A stretch of DNA of 64,000 nt from an uncultured Candidatus Saccharibacteria bacterium (GCA_964544935.1 CAZJDZ010000002.1:30668-94667); one strand, 5' to 3'. Shown: positions 618-50,651, numbered from the stretch's first letter. Numbers and translations are program-made. Notes: generated by a model not told the origin, from the sequence alone.

Positions 618-920
618 CTACTTGATCTTGGCTTCATTCAGAAGCGCTTTGGCTGTTTCGATGTGTCCAGCCTGAAGCAGTCCGAAAAGATGTTGGTTGC
701 CATCCTGGATGGAGACAACAAAGTGCTTCTCAAGGTCTCCTTCTGAAAAGGTGACCTGGTAGACACTTTTCGGAAGAAATAGTGACTTGAAGTTGCGAAT
801 TGAGCAACGAACAACCCTCCATCCCTTTTTTTCTGCTTCTTCAAGAAGCAGAGCATACTCCCTGTCAGGTTTTTCGCTTGATGGGACAAGCAGGCTGAGA
901 AGTGCGAGTTCCAAAAACAT
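618..920 (-). CDS. Hypothetical 100-aa protein, moderately GC-rich
   Basis: ATG is preceded by a strong SD (acggaggt) and by TTGACA-N17-ATATAT on the minus strand. No family recognised. Confidence 0.5.
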   Translation of the reverse strand: MFLELALLSLLVPSSEKPDREYALLLEEAEKKGWRVVRCSIRNFKSLFLPKSVYQVTFSEGDLEKHFVVSIQDGNQHLFGLLQAGHIETAKALLNEAKIK

Positions 921-1546: not shown

Positions 1547-1589
1547 CTTGTGTGTTACCTGCATTGCACAGATAACGGTTGCAGTTTGG

Positions 1590-2651
1590 TCAGGCAGCGA
1601 GGGGTTCTCGCTTCGGTTCAAAGACCATGAGGTCGTAGCAGGCCTTGCTTGAGGCGCTGACGACACAGATGCGGCCAGTCGGGTTTCCCTGCGAGTGCTC
1701 GCGGAAAGCAACGGCAAGCGGCGTCTCCCAGGTCTTCCGCGCGGCGGCGACATCAGCACTGCTCTTGTAGAGCGGTACTTCCGTCGGAATCCCCCCGAGC
1801 TTGACCATGATGATGTCTTCTGCGCTCACTGCGAGCGTCATCGTGGAAGGCTTCAGGCCGGCTTGGTTCAGTTCCGACTTGTTGTCGGAGACTTCGGTCT
1901 CGCCACGGCGGACCTTCCTGTCTGTCAGGAAGAAGTAGCTCTTCGAGGCGCCTTCTGCATCAACGATGATGTAGTGTCGATCGCCGATGAGGCGAGGGAG
2001 TTCATCTTCCATGACCGGAAGGCCGCTGCGCTTTTCGCCGGTTGCCGTGTAGGCGACCTTGATCTGGCGGGCCAGCAGCTCTCTCGCGAAAGTTGCTCGC
2101 GCGGCCAGGCGTTCTTCACGTCGGGCATCAACCTCTGCGGTCCGCTGTGCCTGCCTTTCGAGGTGGGCTTGACGCTCGACTGCGAGACGCTCATCCACCA
2201 GGATCTGTTCGTTCTTGGTGAAATTGGGTTCGAGATCGAGGCCACGAGCGATTGCGATCTTCAGGTCGAGCAGTCGCTCGACCGAAGACCCTCCGACGAG
2301 TTTCGTCATGCCATTGACTGTGATCATGTGGGCCGTCTCGAAGTCTTGTGTCGGGAGCACCGACAGCACATACTTCGAGTTCAATCCGACGATGATCGGA
2401 CAGGGTTCGCTGTCGATTTCGATCAGGTCGGCAAACGGTCGGATACCGGAGGTCTGGAAAGTCCAGGCCTTGACGCCGTTCACCATGACCTTTGCCGGGC
2501 GGTAGCCGTCGTCGTCAGCACCGAAGAACTTGTCCGAACGGAACATCTGGAGTTCGATCTTGATGTCGTTGGGCGCCGTCCAAGAATGGACGATCTCGTG
2601 ACCCGCGTGGATCTTGAGTGCCGGCGAGACAGCGATGGTACGGGTGCTCAT
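1590..2651 (-). CDS. GC-rich hypothetical protein of ~353 aa starting MSTRTIAVSPAL; likely horizontally acquired
   Basis: The ORF track extends it to 2771 via a GTG that sits inside the promoter -10. GC content jumps exactly at the ATG at 2649-2651. A coiled-coil-like segment rich in Arg, Ala and Glu in the middle. No family recognised. Confidence 0.6.
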   Translation of the reverse strand: MSTRTIAVSPALKIHAGHEIVHSWTAPNDIKIELQMFRSDKFFGADDDGYRPAKVMVNGVKAWTFQTSGIRPFADLIEIDSEPCPIIVGLNSKYVLSVLPTQDFETAHMITVNGMTKLVGGSSVERLLDLKIAIARGLDLEPNFTKNEQILVDERLAVERQAHLERQAQRTAEVDARREERLAARATFARELLARQIKVAYTATGEKRSGLPVMEDELPRLIGDRHYIIVDAEGASKSYFFLTDRKVRRGETEVSDNKSELNQAGLKPSTMTLAVSAEDIIMVKLGGIPTEVPLYKSSADVAAARKTWETPLAVAFREHSQGNPTGRICVVSASSKACYDLMVFEPKREPLAA

Positions 2652-2762
2652 AGTGAATACCTTGCCTTTCTTGATGATCAATTCTTTGACCGGATTGTAG
2701 AGAACAACATATAGAAAGCTGGAGGCAACAAAGTTGCAAGCTACCTTACTTTCATGATTACT

Positions 2763-2790
2763 AGTATACACTAATTTATAAAATTGTCAA
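2763..2790 (-). promoter_or_regulatory. Minus-strand sigma70-like promoter TTGACA-N16-TATACT driving the GC-rich ORF 1590-2651; part of a duplicated ~45-nt promoter module
   Basis: The reverse complement reads atatacTTGACAattttataaattagtgTATACTagtaatcatgaaagt, near-identical to the module at 3995-4022. Confidence 0.5.
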
Positions 2791-2896
2791 GTATATTTTG
2801 GCTGGAAAAAGCAATTTTCTATATATATAAAATGGGTATTGAGCTTATTATATATTTCAAAATATAGAAAATAATCAATTTCGTCCCTGATGTATA

Positions 2897-2926
2897 TAAA
2901 AAAGAAAGAACCTCCGAGGAGGTTCT
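2897..2926 (-). terminator. Minus-strand terminator (gaacctcc/ggaggttc with a U-tract) after ORF 2962-3900
   Basis: Hairpin with an A-run at 2897-2907 on the plus strand. Confidence 0.5.
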
Positions 2927-2961
2927 TCACGCTACACATTGCATGCAGTGTTTGCCTTGGG

Positions 2962-3900
2962 TTAGGCAGCCACCATTTCGGTGGACTTCGACAGCTTGTC
3001 CAGCTTGGCGAGGATGTGGTCACGCAGCAGATTCGCATGCGTGAAGTACTCGTCGCCGAGTTCACGAGCAGCATCAGGGATGCCGGTCCCCAAGTCCTCG
3101 CTGTAGATCCAAAGGCCTGTGCGGACCCCATTCTTTGCGAGTGGGTGTTCCTCGGTCATGCTGATGACCGTGATGGTCATCTTCCCGTCGATGGGCTCTT
3201 GGACCACTACACATTGACTGCCTTGGTCGCCGGAGAAGCTGAAGCGACCGACAGTGTTCGAGGTGAACACCTTGATCGGCTTCAGGGTCTTCGTGTCATG
3301 GGTGGGCTTCACAGCCTGCCCATTGGAAGTTGCCAATTGAGGGCCGCCGTTGTGCTTGGAAGCGTTTCTGGCACGCTCTGCCTTGGCGAAGTCAATTTCA
3401 TGTGCGAGGTGTTCGCGCAGGAAGTTGAGCATCTGCTCTTGGATCTCGCCGCGCCAGCCGGAAAGCAGGTTGACCTGATCCGCCGGCTTGAACAGCCAGG
3501 ACAACGGAATGAAGACATCGCGGCACCCGAAGATGCCGAGGATGTCGGTCGCTTCCAGGTGGAGGGTCTCGACACGGTACGTGTCGTACACCAGCTGCCC
3601 GGTTTCGTCCATGTATCCGACGGCGTATTCGCCGTGGATGCCTGCGACCATGTTGCCGTAGAAGGAGCACATGTGCTCCAGCTCTGCCTGCGTGCGGATC
3701 GCCGCATCCTTGCGGGCTTGTTCGGCCAGCGCTCGGGAGCGCTCCGACTCTTGCATCAAGCGGGCAGCTTCACGGTCCTTGTTGGGGCGGTAGGAGGCGG
3801 GGATGGGGCCTTTCGGCTTCTTCGTGGCCACCGGTTCGGCGGTGCCACCCTTCTTGGCTGCCTTGGGTTGCTTTTTGGCTGGAATTTGCTTGCTCGACAT
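2962..3900 (-). CDS. GC-rich hypothetical protein of 312 aa with a Lys/Ala/Pro-rich N-terminal tail; likely horizontally acquired
   Basis: Start ATG preceded by AGGAG (gcaggagattcaaATG). Visibly GC-rich against AT-rich flanks. No family recognised. Confidence 0.6.
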   Translation of the reverse strand: MSSKQIPAKKQPKAAKKGGTAEPVATKKPKGPIPASYRPNKDREAARLMQESERSRALAEQARKDAAIRTQAELEHMCSFYGNMVAGIHGEYAVGYMDETGQLVYDTYRVETLHLEATDILGIFGCRDVFIPLSWLFKPADQVNLLSGWRGEIQEQMLNFLREHLAHEIDFAKAERARNASKHNGGPQLATSNGQAVKPTHDTKTLKPIKVFTSNTVGRFSFSGDQGSQCVVVQEPIDGKMTITVISMTEEHPLAKNGVRTGLWIYSEDLGTGIPDAARELGDEYFTHANLLRDHILAKLDKLSKSTEMVAA

Positions 3901-3994
3901 TTGAATCTCCTGCGCAATGTTTCAGCGCGTGGTGGATTGAAAGGTTCAACGAGAAAGAGTCTGGGGCTTGCCGCGGACAACTTTCATGTATTAT

Positions 3995-4022
3995 AGTATA
4001 CACTAATTTATCAAAATGTCAA
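3995..4022 (-). promoter_or_regulatory. Minus-strand promoter TTGACA-N16-TATACT for ORF 2962-3900; second copy of the promoter module
   Basis: The reverse complement reads atatacTTGACAttttgataaattagtgTATACTataatacatgaaagt. Confidence 0.5.
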
Positions 4023-4030
4023 GTATATAA

Positions 4031-4059
4031 TTGACAAAATACAATAGTATTATTATATT
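4031..4059 (+). promoter_or_regulatory. Plus-strand TTGACA-N17-TATATT promoter-like element, divergent from the module at 3995-4022
   Basis: Consensus hexamers; no obvious downstream plus-strand gene. It would give a short transcript antisense to the rbfA terminator. Confidence 0.3.
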
Positions 4060-4093
4060 ATTTATAATAATGCTTTGTAATATTAGTGGATTT

Positions 4094-4129
4094 GAGAAAG
4101 AAAATGCGCGACCCGAAGGGTCGCGCATT
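4094..4129 (-). terminator. Terminator of the infB-rbfA operon (aatgcgcgaccc-gaa-gggtcgcgcatt with a U-tract on the minus strand)
   Basis: 12-bp perfect GC-rich stem, 65 nt downstream of the rbfA stop. Confidence 0.6.
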
Positions 4130-4196
4130 CTATGTATTGGTATTGTATTTTTCTACTGTCTATCATCTACAGCGAAGCGATTTATATTCTGCTATT

Positions 4197-4601
4197 CTAG
4201 TTATCTTCCAGCTCGCTTTCTTTTTGTTCAGCAAGGCCAACGTATGCTTGATGTGCAGCCTTATCTTTTCGTAGTAGCTCGTCAACATGAAGACGATTCT
4301 TCTCTCCATAATCAATCTCTACTTCAAAAAATGGAATCACTTTTACAGGAAGCCTCTTCATAACGAAATGACGAAGCTCACTTCTCATACGCTTAGCAAA
4401 GTTAATTGCAGCATCCTCTTTGTTCTCTGGGAGTACAGTAATAAAAATAGTGCCATGCTTCATATCACGAGAAATATCTGTGCGAGTAACGGTGATCATA
4501 GAAGCGCCTGATGATTCACGCTGAAAAAAGTCCTGAGTAATACCGAGCACTTGCTGCTCTACCTGTAACTGGCGTTGTGATTTTGGTACATTTGCATCCA
4601 T
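4197..4601 (-). CDS. rbfA: Ribosome-binding factor A
   Basis: 134 aa. The ITVTRTDISRDMKHGTIFITV and VKVIPFFEVEIDYGE segments fit the RbfA pattern, and the classic position downstream of infB supports it. Confidence 0.75.
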   Translation of the reverse strand: MDANVPKSQRQLQVEQQVLGITQDFFQRESSGASMITVTRTDISRDMKHGTIFITVLPENKEDAAINFAKRMRSELRHFVMKRLPVKVIPFFEVEIDYGEKNRLHVDELLRKDKAAHQAYVGLAEQKESELEDN

Positions 4602-4677
4602 ATATTATTGGTTAGTGATAGGGTTAAGTGTGTTTTGTCTGCGTAGTCTGCTTTTAGTCTGCGAGGTCTGCGTCTTG

Positions 4678-6213
4678 TTAGATGCGAAGCTTCTCTACAG
4701 TAATTGCTTCAACCATATCAGAAGGAATCATTTCTACTTTACTTTCAATCATGAGACCACACTCGTTACCTTCCATAACTGATGATGTTTTGATCTTTTG
4801 TGACTGAAGTTCAACAATTCTTCCTTTGCCAAGCTCAACACCACGACGAACAATACGAACAAGTGCTCCGTTTTCGATACGGCCAGTTTCAACACGACCT
4901 CCGATAACATGCTTATCTTTTTGTGAACTGAAGTTTCGAAGCACCTTGAGTGTTCCAAGAATAGTTTCTTTTTCTTCAAAAGGAAGACGTTCTTCTACGA
5001 GCGTATCAAACCATTCTGAGAGTTTATAAATAATATCAAAAAGTTGTGGAGTGATGTTGAATCTGTCAGCTTGGTCACGAGCTTTTGCTTCCATCTTAAC
5101 TGCAAATCCGAGAATCACTGTCTTTTCATCAGATGACGCAAGCATGATATCTCCTTCTGAGATATTTCCTACGCCTTCTGCGATGATTTTGATCTTTGTA
5201 TCATCGGTCTCACGCTTTTTGAGTTCTGATTTTACAGCATCAAGAGTTCCAAGTGAATCAGCTTTTATGACAACAGGGATAACTACTTTTGCGTTACGAT
5301 AGATACGAGGATCAAGAACTGTCTTTACTGCGTTTTGTCTAGTCTCCTCTTGAAGTTTCTCCATAATCTTTTTATCAGATGAAGAAACGAAGATAGCCCC
5401 AGAGGTAGGTATCTCATCAAAGCCAGTTACTTTGATTGGTTGGCCTGCATGTGGGTTCTTAATTATTCGTCCTGCGAAGTCTTCGATGATACGAATAGGG
5501 GAGAGTGCTGTGCCAGCAACAATTGCACCACTAGCAGCAAGTGTCCCGTCTTTAAGAACAAGAGTTGCAGAGGTACCACGCTTTGGATCAACAAAACTTT
5601 CAAGGACGTAGCCTGTTGCTTCTGTTGCTAGATTTGCTTTAAGTTCATGCATATCTACAAGGAGAAGAAGTGTTTCAAGAAGAAAATCAACTCCTGTACC
5701 TGCCTTTGCAGAAATTTCAACACAAGGAATATCACCTCCGTATCCTTCGATGTAGATACCATTTTCCACAAGAGAGTTCTTTGTCTTCTGTATATCTGCG
5801 CCTGGCTTGTCTATTTTGTTGATTGCAACAACATACGGAAGCTTATGAGCATCAATTGTTTTCCATGCTTCAAGAGTTTGTGCTTTTACACCGTCTTCTG
5901 CAGAAACAATGAGAATAGCAATATCTGCAATCTCTACACCACGTTCACGCATACTTTGAAAAGCCGCGTGTCCTGGAGTATCAAGAAACGTGATAGGCTT
6001 TGTACTGCCATCCGGTTGCTTCTGGTTAACTTCGTAGGCTGAGATACGCTGTGTGATACCACCAGCTTCGCCGTCTACGACGTTTGATTTTCGAATATAA
6101 TCAAGAAGTGAGGATTTACCATGATCAACATGCCCGAGGACCGCGATGACAGGCTGACGAGAAACAGCTTCTTGTGAAGTGAGCTTTTTTGACATAATTG
6201 GAAGTAAGGGCAA
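4678..6213 (-). CDS. infB: Translation initiation factor IF-2, short form of 511 aa lacking the long N-terminal region
   Basis: GHVDHGKSSLLD G1 motif, DTPGH, NKIDK, C-terminal beta-barrel domains. Confidence 0.9.
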   Translation of the reverse strand: MPLLPIMSKKLTSQEAVSRQPVIAVLGHVDHGKSSLLDYIRKSNVVDGEAGGITQRISAYEVNQKQPDGSTKPITFLDTPGHAAFQSMRERGVEIADIAILIVSAEDGVKAQTLEAWKTIDAHKLPYVVAINKIDKPGADIQKTKNSLVENGIYIEGYGGDIPCVEISAKAGTGVDFLLETLLLLVDMHELKANLATEATGYVLESFVDPKRGTSATLVLKDGTLAASGAIVAGTALSPIRIIEDFAGRIIKNPHAGQPIKVTGFDEIPTSGAIFVSSSDKKIMEKLQEETRQNAVKTVLDPRIYRNAKVVIPVVIKADSLGTLDAVKSELKKRETDDTKIKIIAEGVGNISEGDIMLASSDEKTVILGFAVKMEAKARDQADRFNITPQLFDIIYKLSEWFDTLVEERLPFEEKETILGTLKVLRNFSSQKDKHVIGGRVETGRIENGALVRIVRRGVELGKGRIVELQSQKIKTSSVMEGNECGLMIESKVEMIPSDMVEAITVEKLRI

Positions 6214-6276
6214 TTATACCACATTTTTATAATATTTTCTAGTCTTTCTCTTGGAAGAGCTTGTTAATTTCTCGTG

Positions 6277-6762
6277 TTAGAGTTTCTTTTTTTCGTTTTT
6301 CTCTTTTGCTTCGTCAAGTACATACTGCTCTTCTTCAGTAAGTTCAAATTCTGATTCAAATGCTTTAATAGGTTTTGCGTAGAATGAAGTCCTATCGCGG
6401 TGATGAAGTGAAGAAAGAACAACGCCGTTACCTGTTTCGTCGATGAGTGCTACAGAGAAAGATTGATTACTTGCGCTTGACTCGAGTGCTTTGTAACGAA
6501 TAGAGTGTGCGTTTCGTACAGAGGTTTTGAGGCGATCATCAAGTGAGAGAAGATATTTAGAAATAAATTCATTTTTTTCTTCTACAGTTGCAACACTCGC
6601 GATGCAATTTGTAAGTGTGTCTTCAAGTGTCGCGCCATTTTTGCCTCGAGTAAGAATAGTGATTCTGTGATCAAGATAGAATACATAGATAATGAGGACC
6701 CCAAGAGAAACAGAAAGAGGAAGGGCAGGATTTGCAAAGATGAGTGTGAGAATGTGTTGCAT
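6277..6762 (-). CDS. Hypothetical protein with an N-terminal membrane anchor, 161 aa
   Basis: One N-terminal TM helix and a Glu/Lys-rich C-terminus. No family assigned. Confidence 0.5.
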   Translation of the reverse strand: MQHILTLIFANPALPLSVSLGVLIIYVFYLDHRITILTRGKNGATLEDTLTNCIASVATVEEKNEFISKYLLSLDDRLKTSVRNAHSIRYKALESSASNQSFSVALIDETGNGVVLSSLHHRDRTSFYAKPIKAFESEFELTEEEQYVLDEAKEKNEKKKL

Positions 6763-7052
6763 GGCAAGAATTATATTGAAACAAGTAACTACAATAAATC
6801 AAAAAAAAGAATAGTCCTGTGTATAGAGATTGTATCATGTGTATAAAGATGGGTGTGAATAGAGATATATGGCTTAAGTCGCTTTAGGTACAATGCAAGC
6901 CTCACGTTCTTTCTGGGGTATTTTATAGCAACGAGAAACGACATCAGGAACTGACATGGAAAGGAAGTCGCCGTTTTAAAAGTGCAAAGTTGTACGAATA
7001 TAAAATTGATATTGCTGCGCTATAAAAGTTGACAAAAATAAATTATAAGTTG

Positions 7053-7082
7053 ACAAAAGTTCTGTTGTTCATGTACACTGAA
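7053..7082 (+). promoter_or_regulatory. Candidate promoter (TTGACA-N18-TACACT) for the small peptide gene at 7205
   Basis: Tandem TTGACAAAA boxes at 7030 and 7053. Weak. Confidence 0.3.
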
Positions 7083-7204
7083 CCGCGAGTTACTCAAAGA
7101 AACTGCGTTTCTTTACATGAAGTAGAGAAGAACAGAAAGGAGAAAACTTCAGTTCTTTGTGTTCTCGTGGATAAAACTCCCAACGAAATAGAAAGAGATC
7201 TGAT

Positions 7205-7486
7205 ATGCCACCAATGAAACACATCTCGATGATGGCTGCTGCAGTTGCCATGCTGGCGGGTGCTGCCATCCCGGTCTCGGCCAAGTCGACACCGGACACC
7301 CTGAGTGCCCCGGATCTGCCGGCACCCATGCCTCAGCCGGTGATGGTCGCGCCACCGTCTTTCCAGGACTCCGCACCACCTCCTCCGAGCGGCCCACCCA
7401 AGGCTGCCGATGCGGTCGAGGTGATCATGCCGCCTCCGGCTTTCGTCACAACTGACACCAGCCAGGATGATCAAGTGACCCTCTGA
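7205..7486 (+). CDS. GC-rich small secreted Pro-rich protein, 93 aa, with a signal peptide
   Basis: N-terminal hydrophobic stretch MMAAAVAMLAGAAIPVSA followed by Pro-rich low complexity. Intrinsic terminator immediately after. Confidence 0.55.
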   Translation: MPPMKHISMMAAAVAMLAGAAIPVSAKSTPDTLSAPDLPAPMPQPVMVAPPSFQDSAPPPPSGPPKAADAVEVIMPPPAFVTTDTSQDDQVTL

Positions 7487-7501
7487 GGCAACTTGGTCCC
7501 C

Positions 7502-7529
7502 AGCCCCACCATCACGGTGGGGCTTTTTA
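7502..7529 (+). terminator. Intrinsic terminator (agccccacc-atca-cggtggggct followed by ttttt)
   Basis: 9-bp GC stem plus T-tract. Confidence 0.7.
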
Positions 7530-7573
7530 TGTTATATAATGCCGTCTGGTTTTATTGTTATCAGATAAAAAAC

Positions 7574-7596
7574 TTGACAAATACTTTATATATGAT
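7574..7596 (+). promoter_or_regulatory. Promoter-like cTTGACAaatactttatatatgat; spacing to the -10 is ambiguous
   Basis: Perfect TTGACA. TATGAT sits only 11 nt away, so an alternative -10 is possible. Confidence 0.35.
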
Positions 7597-7600
7597 AGGG

Positions 7601-7719
7601 TGTTTTTTGTCGCTCAAGAACTGAGCGATACGGGCGGAACCATCTTTGGTTCCGCATAGTTGTCAATGTAGCGACCGTTGGTCTCGCAACCACGTTAGCC
7701 ACTACCCAAGGAGAGAACG
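7601..7719 (+). promoter_or_regulatory. GC-rich 5' leader; its last ~60 nt are paralogous to the leader at 8576-8635 and include the RBS (ggtctcgcaaccacgttagccactacccaaggagaga)
   Basis: About 36 of 40 nt identical to the other leader just before the ATG. Contains the hairpin ggaaccatctttggttcc. Confidence 0.45.
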
Positions 7720-8166
7720 ATGATCAAGAAGATGATGATGTATCTCGCAGCCATGGTTGCTGCCTTCACCTTCGCCGTGCCCGCGGCGTTCGCAGCTCCC
7801 TCCAACACCAACGAGAGCTTCTCGTTCCGTGAGACGGTGCAGCCGCCTTCGGTCTGCTCGTGCAAGTGGAAGGGGTGCACCTTCGGCTGCAAGCCGAAGG
7901 CACTCGCTGATGACCTCAAGGCGCTGATGGCGCAGGAGGTTGCGGTTGCTTCCGAGCAACAACCGGACGGCCGAAGGAAGCCCACGCGCTGCTCGGGCCC
8001 GACGTGCATCCTGAAGGGCTCAGCTGCCGACCCCATGGTCACTTCCTTTGTCGACAGCTTCATGCCGGCCGATTCCCTGGATCCGGACGGCCGAAGGAAG
8101 CCCACGCGGTGCATCAGCAATCCGAAGTGCACCCGTGCCAGTTTGGAAGGCTCCACGTCGAGCTGA
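7720..8166 (+). CDS. GC-rich secreted Cys-rich small protein, 148 aa, with a signal peptide and two copies of the motif PDGRRKPTRC
   Basis: Signal peptide MIKKMMMYLAAMVAAFTFAVPAAFA. Eight Cys residues. 26-nt internal DNA repeats at 7963-7988 and 8083-8108. Confidence 0.6.
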   Translation: MIKKMMMYLAAMVAAFTFAVPAAFAAPSNTNESFSFRETVQPPSVCSCKWKGCTFGCKPKALADDLKALMAQEVAVASEQQPDGRRKPTRCSGPTCILKGSAADPMVTSFVDSFMPADSLDPDGRRKPTRCISNPKCTRASLEGSTSS

Positions 8167-8215
8167 TCCACGTGCACTGGATGATCAAGAAATCTTTTAC
8201 AGGATGACTTGATCT

Positions 8216-8252
8216 CCAACCCCACCCATCAGGGTGGGGTTTTTCTTTTTTT
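8216..8252 (+). terminator. Intrinsic terminator (aaccccaccc-atca-gggtggggtt followed by tttcttttttt)
   Basis: GC stem plus a long T-tract. Confidence 0.7.
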
Positions 8253-8406
8253 ATAGATACGTGTATGAGTAGATATTTGAATTATTTTTATAGTTTTTAC
8301 TATTATTGAATACAGTTATCAGCTAATGTTTGTCTTGAAAATTCATAAAAAGTGTATATATAATAATGTTTTTAGTTGATTATAATCATTTGTCAACGTA
8401 AGGTGC

Positions 8407-8434
8407 TTGACAAATATTTTGTATATGCTATACT
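8407..8434 (+). promoter_or_regulatory. Sigma70-like promoter TTGACA-N16-TATACT
   Basis: cttgacaaatattttgtatatgcTATACT. Confidence 0.5.
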
Positions 8435-8436
8435 AC

Positions 8437-8635
8437 ATCTTGTCGCTGGATAGTCGGTAGCGTAAGCCCGTAAGGGAATCGCCTCCAACATCCTTTGCCT
8501 GCTGGTCATTCAAGGCCTGCCGGCGTCGCCGCGACGTTGAGCGGCGGGGTCACCTGACCTTGCCGCGACAGTACCTTCCACAACGGCAACCGTCGGTCTC
8601 GCGACCACGCTAGCCACAACCCAAGGAGAGAGACC
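8437..8635 (+). promoter_or_regulatory. GC-rich ~200-nt 5' leader; its 3' end is paralogous to the leader at 7601-7719 (ggtctcgcgaccacgctagccacaacccaaggagagagacc)
   Basis: Conserved RBS-proximal block. Internal hairpin cgccgcgacgttgagcggcg. Confidence 0.4.
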
Positions 8636-8776
8636 ATGAACCGTCTGACCCATGCCCCGCCGACCAGTACCCATCTGAGTCATACCTCCGGCACCAAGAT
8701 CCTGGGCCTGTCCGCCTGCACCTCCGCCAAGCTGGCCGCCGCCGGCGCCCGAACGCCGGCCTCCGGCATCAGCTGA
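8636..8776 (+). CDS. GC-rich 46-aa peptide (MNRLTHAPPTSTHLSHTSGTKILGLSACTSAKLAAAGARTPASGIS); possibly lipobox-like (LSAC)
   Basis: ATG immediately after the conserved leader/RBS. Too short to appear in the ORF track. Speculative. Confidence 0.35.
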   Translation: MNRLTHAPPTSTHLSHTSGTKILGLSACTSAKLAAAGARTPASGIS

Positions 8777-9045
8777 CCGGTCGCGTTGGCCAAGCACATC
8801 GTCGCAGGCGGCTCATTGAAAGCGTTGTGAACTCTGTTCACTCCACTTGTCTTTGGCCGCCTGCGCGATGAACTCGCCGCACTGCGCGCGCTGCTTGCGT
8901 GCCACGGCCTCAGGTGGTCTGCCTCGAGACATCTGTAGGCGGTCCGCGGCGAGTGTCTCCGCCCCCCGAAGCCCATCTCGGCGGGGTAACCTCGGAGCTA
9001 GTTAACTTAGGACTAGCGTCATTCCGAAAGACCTGAAAGACTAAG

Positions 9046-9082
9046 TCTCCCCGAACCGCAAGGTTCGGGGGGTTTTTATTTT
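9046..9082 (+). terminator. Intrinsic terminator (ctccccgaacc-gcaa-ggttcgggggg followed by tttttattttt)
   Basis: 11-bp stem plus T-tract. Closes the GC-rich block at 8777-9045. Confidence 0.65.
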
Positions 9083-9083
9083 T

Positions 9084-10415
9084 ATGGTAGAGTTTATATA
9101 TATGTTTTCATTTTTTATACAACAAGGTTTACGTCTGCGCGGTCTGAATACGTCTGCGCGGTCTGTATCTAGTCGGGTGTATTTGGATAATGCTGGGGCG
9201 ACAGAGGTAGGAGAGCGCGCGAAGCGCGCTCTCCTAGAATCACTCGACGTATACGGCAACCCCTCAGGTATTCACAAAGAGGGGACAGAGGCAAGCGTGT
9301 TACTTGATAAAGCACGCGCACTCTGTGCAACAGTGATCAACGCACATGCATATGAGGTGTATTTCACTTCATCTGGTACAGAGTCATGTAATCTTGCAAT
9401 CCTCGGAACCTATGATGCATTTGCTACAAACTACAAACTACAAACTACAGGCTTAGCCGCACTCCCTCACATCATTGTTTCTTCTATTGAGCACCCTGCA
9501 GTTCTCGAACCTGTTCGAAGATTGGAGAAAGCGGGGAAGATTCGAGTGATCTATCTTCCAGTATATGAAGATGGAATAGTAAAGGTGAATGATCTTATAG
9601 AAGCACTTACTGACGAAACTATCTTGGTAAGTGTTATGTATGCTAATAATGAAATTGGGACACTGCAACCTATTAAAGAAATTGGTCGAGCGATAGAAAA
9701 CTGGAAACGTGAGAAAAACCTTCCACACACTGCATATCCATATTTTCATACTGATGCATGTCAGGCAGCAAATTACTGCAATCTAGATGTGCTCCGACTT
9801 AAGGCTCATATGATGACTGTTAATAGTAGTAAGGTATATGGTCCGAAAGGGTCTGCATTTCTGTACAAACGTGAAGGAGTAAAACTTTCTCCGCTATCAC
9901 ATGGTGGTGGGCAAGAGCGTACACTTCGTAGTGGGACAGAAAATGTTGCGAGTGCGTATGCATTTGGAGTTGCGCTTACTGAGGCTCAAAATATGAGAGA
10001 AGAAGAAAGTGCGCGCTTGCGCGCGCTTCGTGACGAGACAGTTGCGTCACTAAAAAGTTCAATCCCCTCAATTATTTTCTACGGAGCATTTGATGAGTAT
10101 TTTGAATTGCTACCAGCTACTAGTCAAAAGCTAAAGGCTGTCCAACGTCTCCCAAATAACATCAACTGTCGAGTACCGGGTATCTCAAGTGAGGAGATGA
10201 TTCTTCGTCTTGATGCACAAGGGTTCGCTGTCTCACATAAGTCAGCTTGTGCGTCTATGGAAACTGATGGCAGTTATGTGGTTACAGCACTTGGTGCAAC
10301 AGAAGATGAAGCCCGTGAAAATATTCGTATTAGTATGGGAAGGAGTACAACAAAAAAAGATATGGAAAAATTTGTGAAAGCAGTACAAGACATAGCTAGT
10401 AAATACAAAAAATAA
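9084..10415 (+). CDS. Cysteine desulfurase (class V aminotransferase, NifS/IscS family)
   Basis: YLDNAGAT and GNPSGIHKEG segments, a PLP-lysine region SSKVYGPKGSAFLY, an active-site Cys loop HKSACAS, and GGGQERTLRSGTENV. The true start may lie downstream of the first ATG. Confidence 0.8.
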   Translation: MVEFIYMFSFFIQQGLRLRGLNTSARSVSSRVYLDNAGATEVGERAKRALLESLDVYGNPSGIHKEGTEASVLLDKARALCATVINAHAYEVYFTSSGTESCNLAILGTYDAFATNYKLQTTGLAALPHIIVSSIEHPAVLEPVRRLEKAGKIRVIYLPVYEDGIVKVNDLIEALTDETILVSVMYANNEIGTLQPIKEIGRAIENWKREKNLPHTAYPYFHTDACQAANYCNLDVLRLKAHMMTVNSSKVYGPKGSAFLYKREGVKLSPLSHGGGQERTLRSGTENVASAYAFGVALTEAQNMREEESARLRALRDETVASLKSSIPSIIFYGAFDEYFELLPATSQKLKAVQRLPNNINCRVPGISSEEMILRLDAQGFAVSHKSACASMETDGSYVVTALGATEDEARENIRISMGRSTTKKDMEKFVKAVQDIASKYKK

Positions 10416-11125: not shown

Positions 11126-11686
11126 ATGTATATTGCAAAAGATTTTTCACATTTGCTTGGTCTTACTGGATTAAGTGATGCGCTCCTCAATAATCACTTC
11201 ACTCTGTATCAAGGGTATGTGACAAACACCAATAAGTTGATTGAGCTTCTAAAAGATAAAGAAGCAGGGACACCAGAATATGCAGAACTTCATCGTCGTT
11301 TTGGGTGGGAATGGAATGGCATGAGACTTCATGAGCTTTACTTTGAAAATATTTCTAAGAATCATGTTCCATTAAGTGAGCGTACGCTTAAGCAGAAGAT
11401 AGAAGGCACATGGGGATCGGTAGAAAACTGGGAAAAAGAATTCAGGGGTATGGCTGCTATGCGTGGTATTGGTTGGGTGGTACTTGCTCATGATAAAAAA
11501 GATGGAAAGCTCTTCAACATCTGGGTAGGGGAACATGATGAAGGGTACCTTGCAGGACTTACACCGCTTCTTGTTATGGATGTATTTGAACATGCGTTTA
11601 TGCTTGATTATGGTATTAAGCGTGCAGACTACATCAATACATTCATGTCATCAATTGATTGGCATGTGGTGGAGGAGCGAGTGTAA
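11126..11686 (+). CDS. Fe/Mn superoxide dismutase family protein
   Basis: C-terminal GWVVL...PLLVMDVFEHAFMLDYGIKRADYINTFMSSIDWHVVEERV matches the SOD signature (DVWEHAYY...NW..V). N-terminal NHFTLYQGYVTN resembles the His-His region. Confidence 0.75.
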   Translation: MYIAKDFSHLLGLTGLSDALLNNHFTLYQGYVTNTNKLIELLKDKEAGTPEYAELHRRFGWEWNGMRLHELYFENISKNHVPLSERTLKQKIEGTWGSVENWEKEFRGMAAMRGIGWVVLAHDKKDGKLFNIWVGEHDEGYLAGLTPLLVMDVFEHAFMLDYGIKRADYINTFMSSIDWHVVEERV

Positions 11687-15020: not shown

Positions 15021-15034
15021 GCTCTGCCACAGAG

Positions 15035-15128
15035 GCAAGACAACTGCTTGTCTTGCGAAGGATTTGAATACGGGGTCGCGGAGCTTCTTCGACGAACGAA
15101 GTGAGGAGGAGCTCTGTGGCCAAATCCA
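15035..15128 (+). repeat. tRNA-adjacent structured repeat, copy 4, covariant: 5' hairpin GCAAGACA-actgct-TGTCTTGC, GAAGGATTTGAATACGGGGTCGCG, variable hairpin gagct...agctc, GTGGCCAAATCC
   Basis: Same architecture as copies 1-3 with compensatory changes. The outer stem now matches the tRNA-Tyr T-arm (TTCAAATCC). Confidence 0.55.
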
Positions 15129-15307: not shown

Positions 15308-15862
15308 TCAGACGGTGCGACGAATGGTGAACACGTCGTAGCGTTGAACTCCCAGATGGTGAACGCCTAGGGTGGTATAGTCAACCAACTTGGTTTCCTT
15401 CTGCCACTCGTAGCCTGATGGAAGAGTGTCGAGCGTCCCATCACTTGCACGTGGGTAGTTCACATCGTTCGAGTGTTCACTTTTGTCGTAATACTCCAGC
15501 AAGAGCGGACCACCAGTGGAAAGACCACCGTCACTAACGTGACCACCAGATTTGTAGTGGCCATGCGACCCCTTCCAAATCCTTATCTGGTACATCCCCC
15601 GCTTGTGGGGATCACCGTTGTGATAGGTGTCCTTCTGGTGAGGGCGGGTGATCATGATCTGGTCAAGCGGGAGCGTCTCCATGATGATGCGCCATCCGCT
15701 GGAGAGCTGGCCCTTGTTGGACTTCTGCCGAAGGGTTTCCAGCGTCCCAGTTCTCAAGACATCAGCGAGAAGCCCTGACTCGAGAACTTGCTGCGTTTGT
15801 TCTGACGAGATTTCCTTGAGCATGTCAAGGATCTTGGCTGCTTGGGCGAGGGTGGTTTTCAT
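15308..15862 (-). CDS. Hypothetical 184-aa protein, higher GC than the flanks; island gene next to tRNA-Tyr
   Basis: Clean ORF, SD ggagaaagtaaaggactggtATG. No family recognised. Confidence 0.55.
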   Translation of the reverse strand: MKTTLAQAAKILDMLKEISSEQTQQVLESGLLADVLRTGTLETLRQKSNKGQLSSGWRIIMETLPLDQIMITRPHQKDTYHNGDPHKRGMYQIRIWKGSHGHYKSGGHVSDGGLSTGGPLLLEYYDKSEHSNDVNYPRASDGTLDTLPSGYEWQKETKLVDYTTLGVHHLGVQRYDVFTIRRTV

Positions 15863-46462: not shown

Positions 46463-49429
46463 ATGGCTATTTTGCAAATAATTAAGAAAAGAAATGGAGA
46501 GATGGTTCCTTTTGATGGAGAGAAGATTGAGAAGGCAATCAAAAAAGCTTTCATCAGCATTACTCGCGAAGAGAAGGCAGAAGTTGCTAAACATATTTCT
46601 GAGCTCGTAGCTAAAGAGCTTGAGCTCGAAGCAATGACTCGCGACGGGTATGTTCCAACAGTTGAGCATACACAGGATCTTGTAGAAAAGCACATCATGG
46701 GGGCTGGTTTTTTTGACGTCGCAAAAGCTTACATCATTTATCGCTACGAACGTACAAAAGAACGTGAAGAAGAAAAACTTGAGACACTTGAAAAAGTAGA
46801 AGAAGGAGGGCTCTACATTACGAAGAAGAACGGCAAGAAAGAAAAGTTTAATCTTGAGAAAGTTAGAAAGTCAGTTTCGTATGTGATTACAGGGTATGAA
46901 AAAGAAGTTAATCTTGACCAGATTGTTAATCAGGTAAAGCTTGAGGTATACGAAGGGATGAGTACTTCCGAAATTCGTAAGGCGGTCATCATGACTGTAC
47001 GTTCAATGATTGAGCAGGATCCTATCTATTCATATGTTGCGTCTCGTATGATTCTCGCACAGATTAATGAGGATCTTCTCGGAGAAAAAATAGACTATAG
47101 TACTATTGATGTTCAGTACCAAGCTACATTCATTGATAGTATTACAAAAGGAGTTGAAAGAGGGCTTCTTGATGCTCGTATGAAAGACTTCGATTTAACT
47201 CGTCTCTCAAAGGCTATCGTTAAGTCTCGCGACGAGTTATTTATGTATCTCGGCTCTCAGACACTCTATGAGCGTTACCTCGTACGTGATGTAGAAGGTG
47301 ACGGAAAGATCATCGAAAACATCCAAGGCTTCTGGATGCGTATCGCTATGGGTATCGCACTTGGGGAAAAAGAACTCGATCGCACTACACGCGCAATCGA
47401 ATTTTATGAAGCGATGTCCACACTCCGTTTCGTTCCATCATCACCAACACTCTTCCATGCAGGAACAAAGCACCCACAGCTCTCATCATGTTACCTCAAC
47501 ACTGTAGGTGACTCTCTTGAGTCTATTTTTAAGGTCTATGCAGATAATGCACAGCTCTCTAAGTGGGCAGGAGGTATCGGAACTAACTGGACCTCTGTTC
47601 GTGCATCAGGTGCACTTGTGAAGAAGTCAGGTATCAAGTCAAATGGGCTTGTTCCTTTTCTTAAGATTGCAAACGATGTAACTGTTGCTATTAACCGTTC
47701 AGGACGCCGCCGAGGTGCAACATGTGTATATATAGAGAACTGGCACTACGATGTTGACGAATTCTTGGAGCTTCGTAAGAACACTGGAGATGATCGTCGC
47801 CGAACACACGACATGGATACTGCGCTCTGGATTTCTGACCTCTTCATGAAGCGCGCTCAGAATGATGAAGATTGGACACTTTTCTCACCAGATGAAGTTC
47901 CAGAACTTTCTGAAACATACGGAGATGTATTTGAGAAGCACTATGAGAACTACGAAAAGCTCGCCAAGGAAGGTAAGGTAAAAGTGTTCAAGCAGATTAA
48001 GGCTCGCGAACTTTGGCGTAAGATGATCACTATGCTTTACGAAACAGGTCACCCTTGGATTACATTTAAGGATCCTTCAAACATTCGTTCACCACAGGAT
48101 CATGCTGGAGTTGTTCATAACTCAAACCTCTGTACTGAAATTACACTCAACAACTCACTCGATGAGACTGCTGTATGTAACCTAGGATCACTCAACTATC
48201 AGCGTCTTATGCGTAATGGTAAGTTCGATGTAGATCTCGTAGCTGCTACTACTCGTACAGCTATCCGTATGCTCGATAACGTAATCGACGTCAACTACTA
48301 CCCAACTATCGAAGCAAAGAACAGTAATATGAAGCATCGCCCGATTGGACTCGGTCTCATGGGCTTCCACGATGCTCTCTATATGATGAATATCAACTTT
48401 GATTCTGATGAAGCGGTACAGTTCGCTGATGAATCTATGGAGCTCATCTCATACCACGCTATTCTTTCATCATCTGAGCTTGCTCGTGAGCGTGGGGCAT
48501 ACTCAAGTTATAAGGGAAGTAAATGGGATAGAAATATTTTCCCAGTAGATACTATTGCTCTCCTTGAGAAGAGCCGTGGAGTTGAGATCCCTGTTAGTAA
48601 AACAGGCAAGCTCGACTGGACACCAGTACGCGCATCAGTGAAGCAGTTCGGTATGCGTAACTCAAACACTATGGCGATGGCACCAACTGCAACTATCTCT
48701 AACATCGCAGGATCTGTCCCATGTATCGAACCTATCTATAAGAACATCTACGTGAAGTCAAACATGAACGGTGAGTTCATTATTGTGAACCCATACCTCG
48801 TAGATGATCTCAAGGCACTTAACCTTTGGGACTTCGAGATGATCGGACTTCTCAAGTACAACGATGGTTCAGTAAAAGATATCCCATCTATTCCGGCACA
48901 CCTTAAGGATAAGTACAAGGAAGTGTTCCAGATTGATCCATCATGGCTTATCAAGTCAGCTGCGTCTCGTGGCAAGTGGGTTGACCAGTCACAGTCACTT
49001 AACATTTACTTCGCAGGCACATCAGGGCGCGAGCTTGCTAACATCTATGAGTACGCATGGTCACTTGGTCTTAAGACAACATACTATCTACGATCACTCG
49101 GTGCATCTCAGGTAGAGAAGAGTACAGTTAATGCGTCTGAGTTCGGTTCTACACACAAGCGTGATGCTGGAGCTGATTCAACAACAGCAAGTGCAATGGG
49201 GACTCAGATCAGTTCTCCTGTTGCAAGTGCTCTCTCTTCAGCAGTTGCGCAGACTGCAGTAGTAGCTACTCCAGAAGTAGTGGTACCTATCGCTTCAGTT
49301 GTATCTCCTATCCCGTCAATGGTTAAAAATATAACTCCTACAGAACAGCCGGTAATGGCAGAACAAGCCCCGAAAATGAAGTACAAAATCACTGTTATGC
49401 CAGAAGCAACATGTGATGGATGTCAGTAG
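46463..49429 (+). CDS. nrdA: Class I ribonucleotide reductase alpha subunit with an N-terminal ATP cone and an Ala/Ser/Val-rich C-terminal extension ending CDGCQ
   Basis: ATP-cone at the N-terminus, catalytic Cys/Asn/Glu region (NLCTEI), C-terminal Cys pair. Confidence 0.92.
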   Translation: MAILQIIKKRNGEMVPFDGEKIEKAIKKAFISITREEKAEVAKHISELVAKELELEAMTRDGYVPTVEHTQDLVEKHIMGAGFFDVAKAYIIYRYERTKEREEEKLETLEKVEEGGLYITKKNGKKEKFNLEKVRKSVSYVITGYEKEVNLDQIVNQVKLEVYEGMSTSEIRKAVIMTVRSMIEQDPIYSYVASRMILAQINEDLLGEKIDYSTIDVQYQATFIDSITKGVERGLLDARMKDFDLTRLSKAIVKSRDELFMYLGSQTLYERYLVRDVEGDGKIIENIQGFWMRIAMGIALGEKELDRTTRAIEFYEAMSTLRFVPSSPTLFHAGTKHPQLSSCYLNTVGDSLESIFKVYADNAQLSKWAGGIGTNWTSVRASGALVKKSGIKSNGLVPFLKIANDVTVAINRSGRRRGATCVYIENWHYDVDEFLELRKNTGDDRRRTHDMDTALWISDLFMKRAQNDEDWTLFSPDEVPELSETYGDVFEKHYENYEKLAKEGKVKVFKQIKARELWRKMITMLYETGHPWITFKDPSNIRSPQDHAGVVHNSNLCTEITLNNSLDETAVCNLGSLNYQRLMRNGKFDVDLVAATTRTAIRMLDNVIDVNYYPTIEAKNSNMKHRPIGLGLMGFHDALYMMNINFDSDEAVQFADESMELISYHAILSSSELARERGAYSSYKGSKWDRNIFPVDTIALLEKSRGVEIPVSKTGKLDWTPVRASVKQFGMRNSNTMAMAPTATISNIAGSVPCIEPIYKNIYVKSNMNGEFIIVNPYLVDDLKALNLWDFEMIGLLKYNDGSVKDIPSIPAHLKDKYKEVFQIDPSWLIKSAASRGKWVDQSQSLNIYFAGTSGRELANIYEYAWSLGLKTTYYLRSLGASQVEKSTVNASEFGSTHKRDAGADSTTASAMGTQISSPVASALSSAVAQTAVVATPEVVVPIASVVSPIPSMVKNITPTEQPVMAEQAPKMKYKITVMPEATCDGCQ

Positions 49430-49580
49430 GAAGCAGGGAAGATCGTCACCAAAAAAGAGTTACCAGTACAGTGAATCATCTACCTTGCACAGAGGATTGC
49501 CTCAAGGTACAATAAATTTACTTTACGTTTTAGAAAGAATGTAGTATCACTCAACAATTATTAGTAATCACATCATCTGT

Positions 49581-50651
49581 ATGACACAACCAGAAATAAC
49601 ACCAACCACACAGAAACCAATTATCGATCGCACAGCGGGGCGTGTTGATATCAATAAACGCAAGATCATCAACGGTGCTGACGCTGATGTGGTACAGCTC
49701 TGGCCTATCAAGCACAAGTTTGCATGGGATGCATATAATGTCGGTAACGCTAACCACTGGCTACCTACGGAGATCAGTATGCAGTCAGATATCGAACAGT
49801 GGAGGGCGCAGAATGTTCTCACAGATGATGAGCGTCACGCGTTCCGTATGGTGCTTGGTTTCTTCACAACAGCGGACTCAATCGCCGCTAACAACCTCGT
49901 ACTTGCTTTCTACAAGCACATCACATCTCCTGAAGCGAGACTCTACCTCCTTCGTCAGGCGTACGAAGAAGCTATTCATACACAGGCGTATCAGTACATT
50001 GTAGAATCTCTCGGGCTCGATGGAACAGAGATCTTCAACATGTACCGCGAAGTGGATGCTATCTACAACAAGGAAGAATTCATTCTTTCTTTTAACACAG
50101 GTATCTTTGATCCTAACTTTAAGACAGGTACGCTTGAGAATGATCAGAAGTTCCTTGAGAACATGTGTGTCTTCTCTCTTATTCTTGAAGGAGTATTCTT
50201 CTACTCATCGTTTGCGGTGATGTTTGGTTTCCAGCGTCAGAACAAGCTCGTAGGATCTGCAGAACAGATTCAGTACATCATGCGTGATGAGAGTACTCAT
50301 ATGAACTTCGGTATCGACATGATCAACACCATCAAGCAGGAGCAACCAGAACTCTGGACGCCAGCATTCGTAGAGCGTATCACTAACCTTATGCGTAAGG
50401 CAGTACAGCTCGAGTATGAGTATGCTGTAGGAGTATTCCCTAAGGGTATCTTTGGGTTAAATGCAGATGGATTCAAGCAGTACATCGAGCATATCGCAGA
50501 TCGTAGACTTGCCCGTGTAGGTATCGAGGCGATCTATGGATCCACAAACCCATTCCCGTGGATGTCAGAGGCGGTTGATCTTAACAAGGAGAAGAATTTC
50601 TTCGAGACACGAGTAACAGAATATAAGACTGGAGGAACCCTATCTTGGTAA
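49581..50651 (+). CDS. nrdB: Class I ribonucleotide reductase beta subunit
   Basis: Di-iron ligands (EEAIHTQAY and EGVFFYSSFAV...DESTHMNF) and the tyrosyl-radical region. Confidence 0.92.
   Translation: MTQPEITPTTQKPIIDRTAGRVDINKRKIINGADADVVQLWPIKHKFAWDAYNVGNANHWLPTEISMQSDIEQWRAQNVLTDDERHAFRMVLGFFTTADSIAANNLVLAFYKHITSPEARLYLLRQAYEEAIHTQAYQYIVESLGLDGTEIFNMYREVDAIYNKEEFILSFNTGIFDPNFKTGTLENDQKFLENMCVFSLILEGVFFYSSFAVMFGFQRQNKLVGSAEQIQYIMRDESTHMNFGIDMINTIKQEQPELWTPAFVERITNLMRKAVQLEYEYAVGVFPKGIFGLNADGFKQYIEHIADRRLARVGIEAIYGSTNPFPWMSEAVDLNKEKNFFETRVTEYKTGGTLSW

Follow-up and report, generated by a model that had tools for sequence, protein, structure and literature searches.

A candidate accessory hot spot of GC-rich genes for predicted secreted proteins in an AT-rich Candidatus Saccharibacteria genome

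Patescibacteria (candidate phyla radiation, CPR) are believed to spend their lives attached to other microbes, and to our knowledge almost nothing is known about the molecules that they expose or secrete. In phytoplasmas, which are host-dependent bacteria, the small Sec-dependent effectors SAP11, SAP54, and TENGU are encoded in potential mobile units (PMUs). Integron cassettes are usually promoterless, end in attC, and adjoin the intI integrase gene. Here, we analyzed a DNA stretch of 64 kb ("the window") from an uncultured Candidatus Saccharibacteria bacterium (GCA_964544935.1, CAZJDZ010000002.1:30668-94667), an AT-rich, tiny-genome member of the Patescibacteria, and focused on three consecutive GC-rich units located between the genes for a DUF4446 protein and a cysteine desulfurase. 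Horizontal gene transfer (HGT) and genomic islands have been documented in Patescibacteria (PMC12455944), and horizontally acquired genomic islets, a classic concept, resemble the present locus in their atypical composition, their ORFans, their recurrent hot spots, and their patchy presence between relatives.

With moderate confidence, we read this locus as a hot spot for accessory secreted proteins that belongs to a persistently GC-rich class of accessory genes. The three units would be monocistronic cassettes lying between native genes. In units 1 and 2, a sigma70-type promoter would be followed by a 5' untranslated region (UTR) and by a gene that begins with a Sec signal peptide, unit 2 having a strong Shine-Dalgarno (SD) sequence in addition. 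The exported products, a proline-rich acidic protein of 67 aa and a 123-aa protein with eight cysteines, would function on the cell surface or beyond the cell, and because of the lifestyle of the phylum we suppose that they make contact with a host or the environment.

To place the locus, we used same-locus contigs from four independent Sequence Read Archive runs (L001 and L003 to L005), a 173-kb contig of a 98% identical sister strain (L002), and the corresponding loci of relatives (L006 to L010, L012, L014, L016, L018, and L019), whose contigs are labeled Candidatus Saccharibacteria or Paceibacterota. The window has a GC content of 40.3% and contains six GC-rich islands (55 to 60% GC), all within its first 16 kb. 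This island scan confirmed what an earlier note, made from the sequence of the window, had reported, namely, small GC-rich genes in AT-rich surroundings: the GC content of the three units is 60 to 69%, compared to 40% for the genome. The sharpness of this contrast is the one observation that would fit an assembly chimera or a contaminant. Such an artifact is refuted as far as assemblies can show, and we give it next to no credence: the four independent read sets yielded 100% identical loci, the sister strain has the same arrangement on its long contig, and AT-rich promoters alternate with GC-rich bodies every few hundred base pairs.

The earlier note had further proposed that each unit is transcribed separately. 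We confirmed its three open reading frames (ORFs), as well as the promoters and terminators that it had placed around them; a promoter scan recovered those of units 1 and 3, and that of unit 2 was recognized by reading the sequence (Table 1). Each unit thus has a sigma70-type promoter and a GC-hairpin terminator of its own, consistent with three predicted transcription units. A further TTGACA lies at position 7029, near the unit 1 promoter. Like integron arrays, the locus consists of tandem single-gene cassettes, mostly of unknown function and with variable content. Unlike integron cassettes, however, every unit comes with a strong promoter and a terminator, and the 20 kb examined contain no integrase. 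The only recurring 3' palindromes found are intrinsic terminators, in a search that included no attC covariance model.

Table 1. Positions of the features of the locus, its boundaries, and the other GC-rich cassettes of the window (RBS, ribosome-binding site; GC3, GC content at third codon positions)
Feature	Position	Strand	Description and basis
GC-rich islands of the locus	7176-7551, 7666-8210, 8420-9336		58-60% GC
Unit 1 promoter	7050..7079	+	TTGACA-18-TACACT, 10/12; promoter scan
Gene 1	7205..7486	+	93-aa precursor; ORF call, codon-position GC, strain comparison
Unit 1 intrinsic terminator	7502..7524	+	9-bp stem with 7 GC pairs, T-run
Unit 2 promoter	7574..7601	+	TTGACA-16-TAGGGT, TG extension; sequence reading
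Gene 2 5' UTR	7606..7719	+	hairpins, then shared RBS block 7671-7716 with SD AAGGAGAGA
Gene 2	7720..8166	+	148-aa precursor; ORF call, codon-position GC
Unit 2 intrinsic terminator	8218..8241	+	
Unit 3 promoter	8407..8434	+	TTGACA-16-TATACT, 11/12, TG-extended; promoter scan
Unit 3 predicted transcript	8441..9078	+	about 640 nt, GC 61-69%
Second copy of RBS block	8586-8631	+	inside unit 3
46-aa ORF (doubtful)	8636-8776	+	inside unit 3
Unit 3 intrinsic terminator	9047..9072	+	
Left boundary, native DUF4446 gene	6277..6762	-	
Right boundary, cysteine desulfurase gene start	9085..9104	+	extended -10 TGgTAGAGT (9085-9093), ATG at 9102
353-aa orphan cassette (c353)	1590..2651	-	GC3 0.73; promoter 2763-2790(-), terminator 1510-1545
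312-aa orphan cassette	2962..3900	-	GC3 0.77; SD CAGGAGA; promoter 3995-4022(-)
184-aa orphan cassette	15308..15862	-	GC3 0.65; beside tRNA-Tyr; absent from L002
100-aa cassette	618-920	-	weaker class member

Signal peptides were called when a basic n-region, a hydrophobic h-region of 7 to 15 residues, and small residues at positions -3 and -1 were present, hydropathy being taken as the maximum over an 11-residue stretch. Both gene 1 and gene 2 show this type I Sec pattern, with Kyte-Doolittle maxima of 2.2 to 2.25 at residues 10 to 22. The gene 1 signal (MPPMKHISMMAAAVAMLAGAAIPVSA, cleaved before K) has K5 in its n-region, the hydrophobic core AAAVAMLAGAAI (2.25), and a predicted cleavage site between VSA and K; it leaves a mature protein of 67 aa that contains 17 prolines and has a net charge of -6. 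The gene 2 signal (MIKKMMMYLAAMVAAFTFAVPAAFA, cleaved before A) has K3 and K4 in its n-region, the core AAMVAAFTFAV (2.20), and a predicted cleavage site between AFA and A. The eight cysteines of the 123-aa mature protein are arranged in a CSCKWKGCTFGC cluster and two PDGRRKPTRC-x4/5-C repeats, the latter encoded by a 30-nt DNA repeat (7963-7992 and 8083-8112) that is 97% identical. The descriptions given in the earlier note, of a proline-rich secreted protein and of a cysteine-rich one with two repeats, therefore hold at the level of this rule-based reading, and we predict that both are small Sec-type exported proteins.

Codon-position profiles and strain comparison bear on whether these ORFs are coding. 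Gene 2 is taken to be coding because its GC content reaches 0.81 at third positions (GC1/2/3 of 0.51/0.56/0.81). For gene 1 (0.67/0.56/0.67), this indicator is weaker given the proline-rich composition, but all three differences from the sister strain are synonymous (3/3), which supports coding.

The phytoplasma effectors are likewise small signal peptide-bearing proteins without homologues, and their genes lie in variable parts of the minimal genome of a dependent bacterium. This likeness is one of concept. Sequence and fold are not similar, PMU-type genes are absent, the host relationship is presumed here, and the GC-rich codon usage of the present genes has no counterpart there.

Genes 1 and 2 are lineage-specific, with no homologue outside their own species. 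In a word-indexed search of 5.8 billion proteins, gene 2 retrieved only its own cluster. A full HMMER search of 1.84 billion representatives returned gene 2 itself and two spurious matches, a WD40 protein with an "SPDGRR" repeat and another repeat protein. None of the cassette products had a significant match in Pfam, NCBIfam, PHROGs, or PADLOC; matches to Ornatin, HNH_2, and SH2 (E of about 0.04) were discarded as not significant. No phage, plasmid, or viral source was found by tblastn and blastn against INPHARED and PLSDB or by IMG/VR scans. The neighboring genes, which are syntenic over 20 kb, encode DUF4446, IF-2, RbfA, Aminotran_5, superoxide dismutase (SOD), and ClpB proteins; over the same 20 kb, there is no integrase or transposase and no modification, transport, or immunity gene, and no direct repeats were found flanking the locus. 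The toxin, bacteriocin, or signaling role suggested by the earlier note thus gained no backing from these databases or from neighbors of the type that accompany ribosomally synthesized and posttranslationally modified peptides (RiPPs).

The locus is not alone in its composition. Three other orphan cassettes and a weaker 100-aa member of the class lie in the window, each with a near-consensus promoter and a hairpin terminator, and the promoter of the 312-aa cassette is 88% identical to that of c353 over 49 nt. We compared these cassettes with a native set of 36 window ORFs of at least 150 aa with GC3 below 0.42. GC3 is 0.67 to 0.83 in the three ORFs of the locus and 0.65 to 0.77 in the other cassettes but 0.19 to 0.40 in the native ORFs. 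Similarly, G+C at 4-fold degenerate sites is 0.60 to 0.80 in cassettes versus 0.18 to 0.29 in core genes. The impression that the cluster is compositionally alien to its genome was therefore borne out.

The two groups also differ in how their genes begin. Of seven sigma70 sites scoring 11/12 in the 64 kb, five lie directly upstream of GC-rich cassettes. The cassette leaders are 40 to 195 nt long and mostly carry AGGAG-type SDs, as do island genes in relatives. Among the native ORFs, in contrast, an SD-like motif precedes only 1/36, compared to 11.8% of random ATGs, while a -10 hexamer is found 4 to 13 nt upstream of the ATG in 8/36, compared to 4.7% of random ATGs. SD depletion together with -10 hexamers close to the start codon suggests that native initiation is mostly SD-less or leaderless (examples at 9085-9104, 38030, 25322, 52565, and 58216 on the minus strand). 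The right boundary of the locus is such a case: the spacing between -10 and ATG predicts a leaderless or nearly leaderless cysteine desulfurase mRNA, and the TGnTAGAGT upstream of this gene is conserved in L006 to L010. Within the N-terminal coding region of the same gene, a 19-nt sequence is repeated twice (9130-9167). Elsewhere in the window, a 357-aa ORF without a Pfam match (53703-54776, plus strand) has a strong SD (TAGGAGGT) and a GC3 of 0.47, and the class I ribonucleotide reductase genes (46463-50651, plus strand) have a GC3 of 0.40 to 0.50; these genes may be older members of the foreign-looking class.

A recent acquisition by HGT, the donor being a high-GC partner such as the bacterium on which this presumed epibiont lives, with capture downstream of resident AT-rich promoters, would account for the GC3 contrast (0.65 to 0.83 in cassettes versus 0.19 to 0.40 in the core), for SD-bearing leaders in a genome whose own genes are SD-less, and for a patchy distribution at the locus, and it would be in line with the transfer and islands reported for Patescibacteria (PMC12455944). 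We nevertheless consider it rather unlikely. No homologue was found elsewhere, neither among 5.8 billion proteins nor, for gene 2, among 1.84 billion representatives, nor in INPHARED, IMG/VR, or PLSDB. The proposal of the earlier note that the cluster came from a high-GC partner thus keeps its strong compositional signature but lacks a donor homologue in the protein, phage, and plasmid sets.

The c353 cassette speaks to the same question. Its protein, used as a single query, found only itself in the protein set, but a two-sequence profile recovered a clade-restricted family of 14 members, of about 335 aa, with the motif EMFRSxKYxGxRDGxNGFRPAKV and no Pfam match (the L007 copy lies at 4599-5615). 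The six loci examined (L007, L012, L014, L016, L018, and L019) all lie on AT-rich contigs of Patescibacteria, and with the exception of L014, the gene occupies an rbfA-adjacent island in each (five of six). Every member examined has a raised GC3 (0.41 to 0.73, against a local background of 0.2 to 0.35). Moreover, in c353 and in gene 1, GC content jumps at the start codon, from 0.36 to 0.39 in the leader (0.36 for gene 1) to 0.60 to 0.64 in the coding sequence, which capture of random fragments does not predict. Restriction to the clade, GC3, and the jump at the start codon together argue for a persistent accessory class internal to the clade rather than for a single recent import. This clade-wide class would be defined by a GC3 of 0.4 to 0.8, a -35/-10 promoter, a long leader that mostly includes an SD, and a hairpin terminator.

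A further-reaching proposal is that the accessory genes form a separate long-lived pool, with GC-rich codons, full -35/-10 promoters, long and mostly SD-bearing leaders, and GC-hairpin terminators, set against an AT-rich, SD-less, and often leaderless core, and that the proteins encoded at 7205-8166 are host interaction factors that come from this pool. We regard this combination as speculative and unlikely. A dual architecture of this kind could be kept up by an unsampled GC-rich replicon or reservoir common to the clade, by biased gene conversion at recombination hot spots, or by selection for codons and expression signals that suit a GC-rich host cell.

The contents of the locus vary between relatives. 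The sister strain keeps the cluster, whereas L006 to L010, L016, and L019 carry other contents at this place, and in L012 the site is empty, a mere 107 bp separating the DUF4446 gene from that of the cysteine desulfurase. The conserved site is therefore polymorphic for presence and absence of an insertion, as is typical of islands. Small proteins with Sec signals are encoded at the same place in L006 (123 aa), L007 (141 aa), L008 (128 aa), and L016 (158 aa); none is homologous to gene 1 or gene 2. The L007 (9383-9808) and L016 (450-926, minus strand) proteins align weakly with each other and have in common a C-terminal Gly/Ser-rich GGSSCI motif; a similar Gly/Ser-rich tail, GGGSGSITS, occurs in L010 (4721-4979). 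This family is distinct from genes 1 and 2.

Replacement is also seen at the rbfA-side island (1574-4195), where the sister strain (3750-6465) has two different GC-rich genes, of 453 and 306 aa, instead of those for the 353- and 312-aa orphans. Both strains share the 3' flank of this island with its terminator (1465-1574), and this identity reaches to within 16 nt of the stop codon. As the cassettes are not accompanied by mobility genes, exchange and replacement of genes at a few hot spots would most likely proceed by DNA uptake and recombination. As in genomic islets, two other islands of the window abut tRNA genes (tRNA-Leu and tRNA-Tyr). Unlike in islets, we found no integrase, mobility genes, flanking direct repeats, or detectable donor, and every gene is a promoter-to-terminator unit of its own. 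The compositional offset moreover persists here in a clade-restricted family, between genomes whose cysteine desulfurases are about 70 to 77% identical, unlike what a one-off recent import would leave.

As a separate observation, differences between the window and the sister strain are patchy, with 11 to 22 per 200 nt at 5401-5600, 8201-8400, 8601-9000, and 11401-11600 and 0 to 4 elsewhere. Such patches, which also occur inside infB and sodA, suggest frequent homologous recombination with diverged alleles.

We next consider the leader shared by units 2 and 3, which the earlier note had described as a block of about 60 nt, about 90% identical, under shared posttranscriptional control. The block is real and its identity is as described (89 to 91%), but it spans 43 to 46 nt (7671-7716 versus 8586-8631). 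Both leaders open with TTGTCGCT (7607-7614 and 8440-8447), and both contain hairpins, as had been noted (z of -2.7 and -1.8). In gene 2, two 9-bp hairpins directly follow the predicted transcription start site (TSS; z of -2.7) and could plausibly stabilize the 5' end of the mRNA. The similarity of the two units extends to the promoter and first transcribed bases (7573-7614 versus 8406-8447, 76% identical over 42 nt) and to the terminator tail. In contrast, the stretches between TSS and block, 56 and 138 nt long, are unrelated, and so are the bodies.

A cis-regulatory RNA, riboswitch-like or a target of a small RNA, that coregulates peptide genes could account for the conserved block, for the common 5' ends and hairpins, and for the recurrence of a ACAACCYAAGGAGA-like RBS context in L009 and L006. 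Known leader families in Rfam, such as riboswitches and ribosomal-protein leaders, likewise combine a leader segment common to neighboring genes with hairpins in 5' UTRs. Here, however, the conserved part is the SD with its flanks, the structured middles are unrelated, and the block is missing from gene 1. The leader pattern matched twice in the window (7680-7716 and 8595-8631) and not once in 100 shuffles, and the block was found neither elsewhere in the window nor, among the fetched loci, outside the same species. Searches of metagenome contigs returned the sister strain only, and searches of viral contigs returned nothing. Rfam, at gathering and E-value thresholds, gave no leader match, only tRNAs and terminator-like noise. 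With two adjacent copies in a single species, we judge a regulatory leader to be quite improbable. The presence of the block at two adjacent units only points instead to a local duplication of expression signals, not to a regulon, and shared posttranscriptional control is not upheld; a duplication confined to the locus is what the earlier note itself had listed as counting against its proposal.

Unit 3 itself differs from its neighbors. No other part of the locus diverges as fast: about 40 differences, including indels, separate it from the sister strain, compared to 3 in gene 1 and 7 in gene 2. Its predicted transcript is highly structured (z of -6.15); in the longest hairpin (8797-8870), the substitutions between strains are not compensatory. 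The promoter, CTTGACAA...TGCTATACT with a TG(C/T)TATACT form, is kept at the same locus in L006, L007, and L009, where it precedes GC-rich units of 430 to 700 nt without long ORFs. We propose that unit 3 would be a positional relative of this promoter-conserved GC-rich transcript, its promoter and RBS deriving from a local duplication with unit 2.

The earlier note had presented the 46-aa ORF of unit 3 as a third peptide gene with a lipobox-like motif. A lipobox would require [LVI][ASTVI][GAS]C straight after a basic n-region and a hydrophobic h-region. LSAC does occur at residues 25 to 28, but the N terminus is polar (MNRLTHAPPTSTHLSHTSGTK), the hydropathy maximum is 1.05, compared to 2.2 to 2.25 in genes 1 and 2, and no signal peptide was called. 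Because no hydrophobic core lies ahead of it, LSAC is not a lipoprotein signal, and this part of the claim fails.

Between the two strains, the 46-aa ORF is invariant over residues 1 to 22 and differs at 10 of the remaining 24, with length and frame kept and the strong SD retained. This would suit a RiPP or bacteriocin-like peptide whose leader is conserved and whose core is hypervariable. The variable patch, however, runs about 36 nt beyond the stop codon, with six further differences, and so resembles a recombination patch rather than diversification directed at the ORF. In addition, genes for modification, transport, or immunity are absent from the vicinity, there is no signal peptide, and the positional counterparts in L006, L007, and L009 are unrelated short ORFs. 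A RiPP-like product thus appears very unlikely to us. If unit 3 has a functional product, it is probably something other than the 46-aa ORF, and we retain unit 3, with doubt, as a colocated fast-evolving transcript.

Other candidates for unit 3 were set aside. It is not a decayed paralogue of gene 2, since blastn and tblastx similarity is confined to the promoter, the RBS block, and the terminator tail. A 98-aa ORF on the minus strand is disrupted in the sister strain, where it contains indels, and for a 95-aa ORF on the minus strand, no gene was called at that place in the sister strain. In L006 (4167-4226) and L009 (5241-5282), a shared micro-ORF of 13 to 19 aa, M(V/T)RYRIRQ(L/M)CWRS, shows three synonymous Arg-codon changes and is followed by a hairpin with compensatory changes, both lying in a GC-rich unit, complete from promoter to terminator, that precedes the cysteine desulfurase gene; the micro-ORF could encode a small protein or else a leader peptide. 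Its RYRIRQxCW motif is absent from the window.

Several points weigh against reading the locus as an accessory hot spot for secreted proteins. Genes 1 and 2 are conserved in both available strains, so that variability between strains is seen only at other islands, while the locus itself varies between species. The differences between the two gene 2 alleles (five nonsynonymous and two synonymous) suit relaxed selection and diversifying selection equally well. The signal peptides were called by rules, from hydropathy and sequence reading, and not by SignalP, and transcripts and products are predicted from sequence alone. Structure prediction gave little to build on: the AlphaFold2 model of gene 2 is uninformative (predicted local distance difference test [pLDDT] score of 41), and for the c353 model (pLDDT of 67), Foldseek against the PDB returned no match below an E value of 0.18. 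Lacking homologues, we infer function entirely from context. Lastly, the reading leaves the GC richness of the cassettes without an explanation; it might stem from a reservoir not yet sampled, from gene conversion that is biased at hot spots, or from selection acting on mRNA.

Two kinds of repeats were observed outside the locus. A structured repeat of about 90 to 105 nt follows tRNA-Leu and tRNA-Tyr (205-312, 458-562, 1017-1109, and 15028-15120; L002, 17655-17755). It folds into a 9-bp hairpin and a long one whose base is conserved and whose tip varies (z of -6.8, -3.7, and -4.3) and had no match in Rfam. Two copies flank the 100-aa cassette, and the segment at 1-1042, which comprises tRNA-Leu, the structured repeats, and this cassette, is inverted in the sister strain (2280-3141) relative to the adjacent 1158-1574. 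The repeat could be an att-like or tRNA-derived element. Short tandem repeats with genome-specific units (GTCTGCG-like, TAAAGGC seven times, and TAGACTG-like) lie just upstream of the infB start, at 4630-4680 in the window, 7948-7996 in L007, 3160-3250 in L008, and 3880-4010 in L010.

Taken by themselves, the three genes are ordinary orphans: two encode predicted secreted proteins and one is a dubious ORF, and nothing supports a toxin, a bacteriocin, or a riboregulator common to them. The unusual feature is the systematic dual architecture, in composition, promoter type, and SD usage, that sets accessory genes apart from core genes across the clade; in the literature, we found nothing describing the cassette class or this architecture. 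Overall, a hot spot that repeatedly holds strongly promoted, lineage-specific genes for predicted small secreted proteins offers concrete candidates for host interaction in Patescibacteria. If the contrast holds in complete genomes, it would provide a simple marker for the accessory or interaction gene set of these bacteria and, if true, would raise the question of the origin of such genes and of what keeps them from drifting toward the AT richness of the genome that hosts them.

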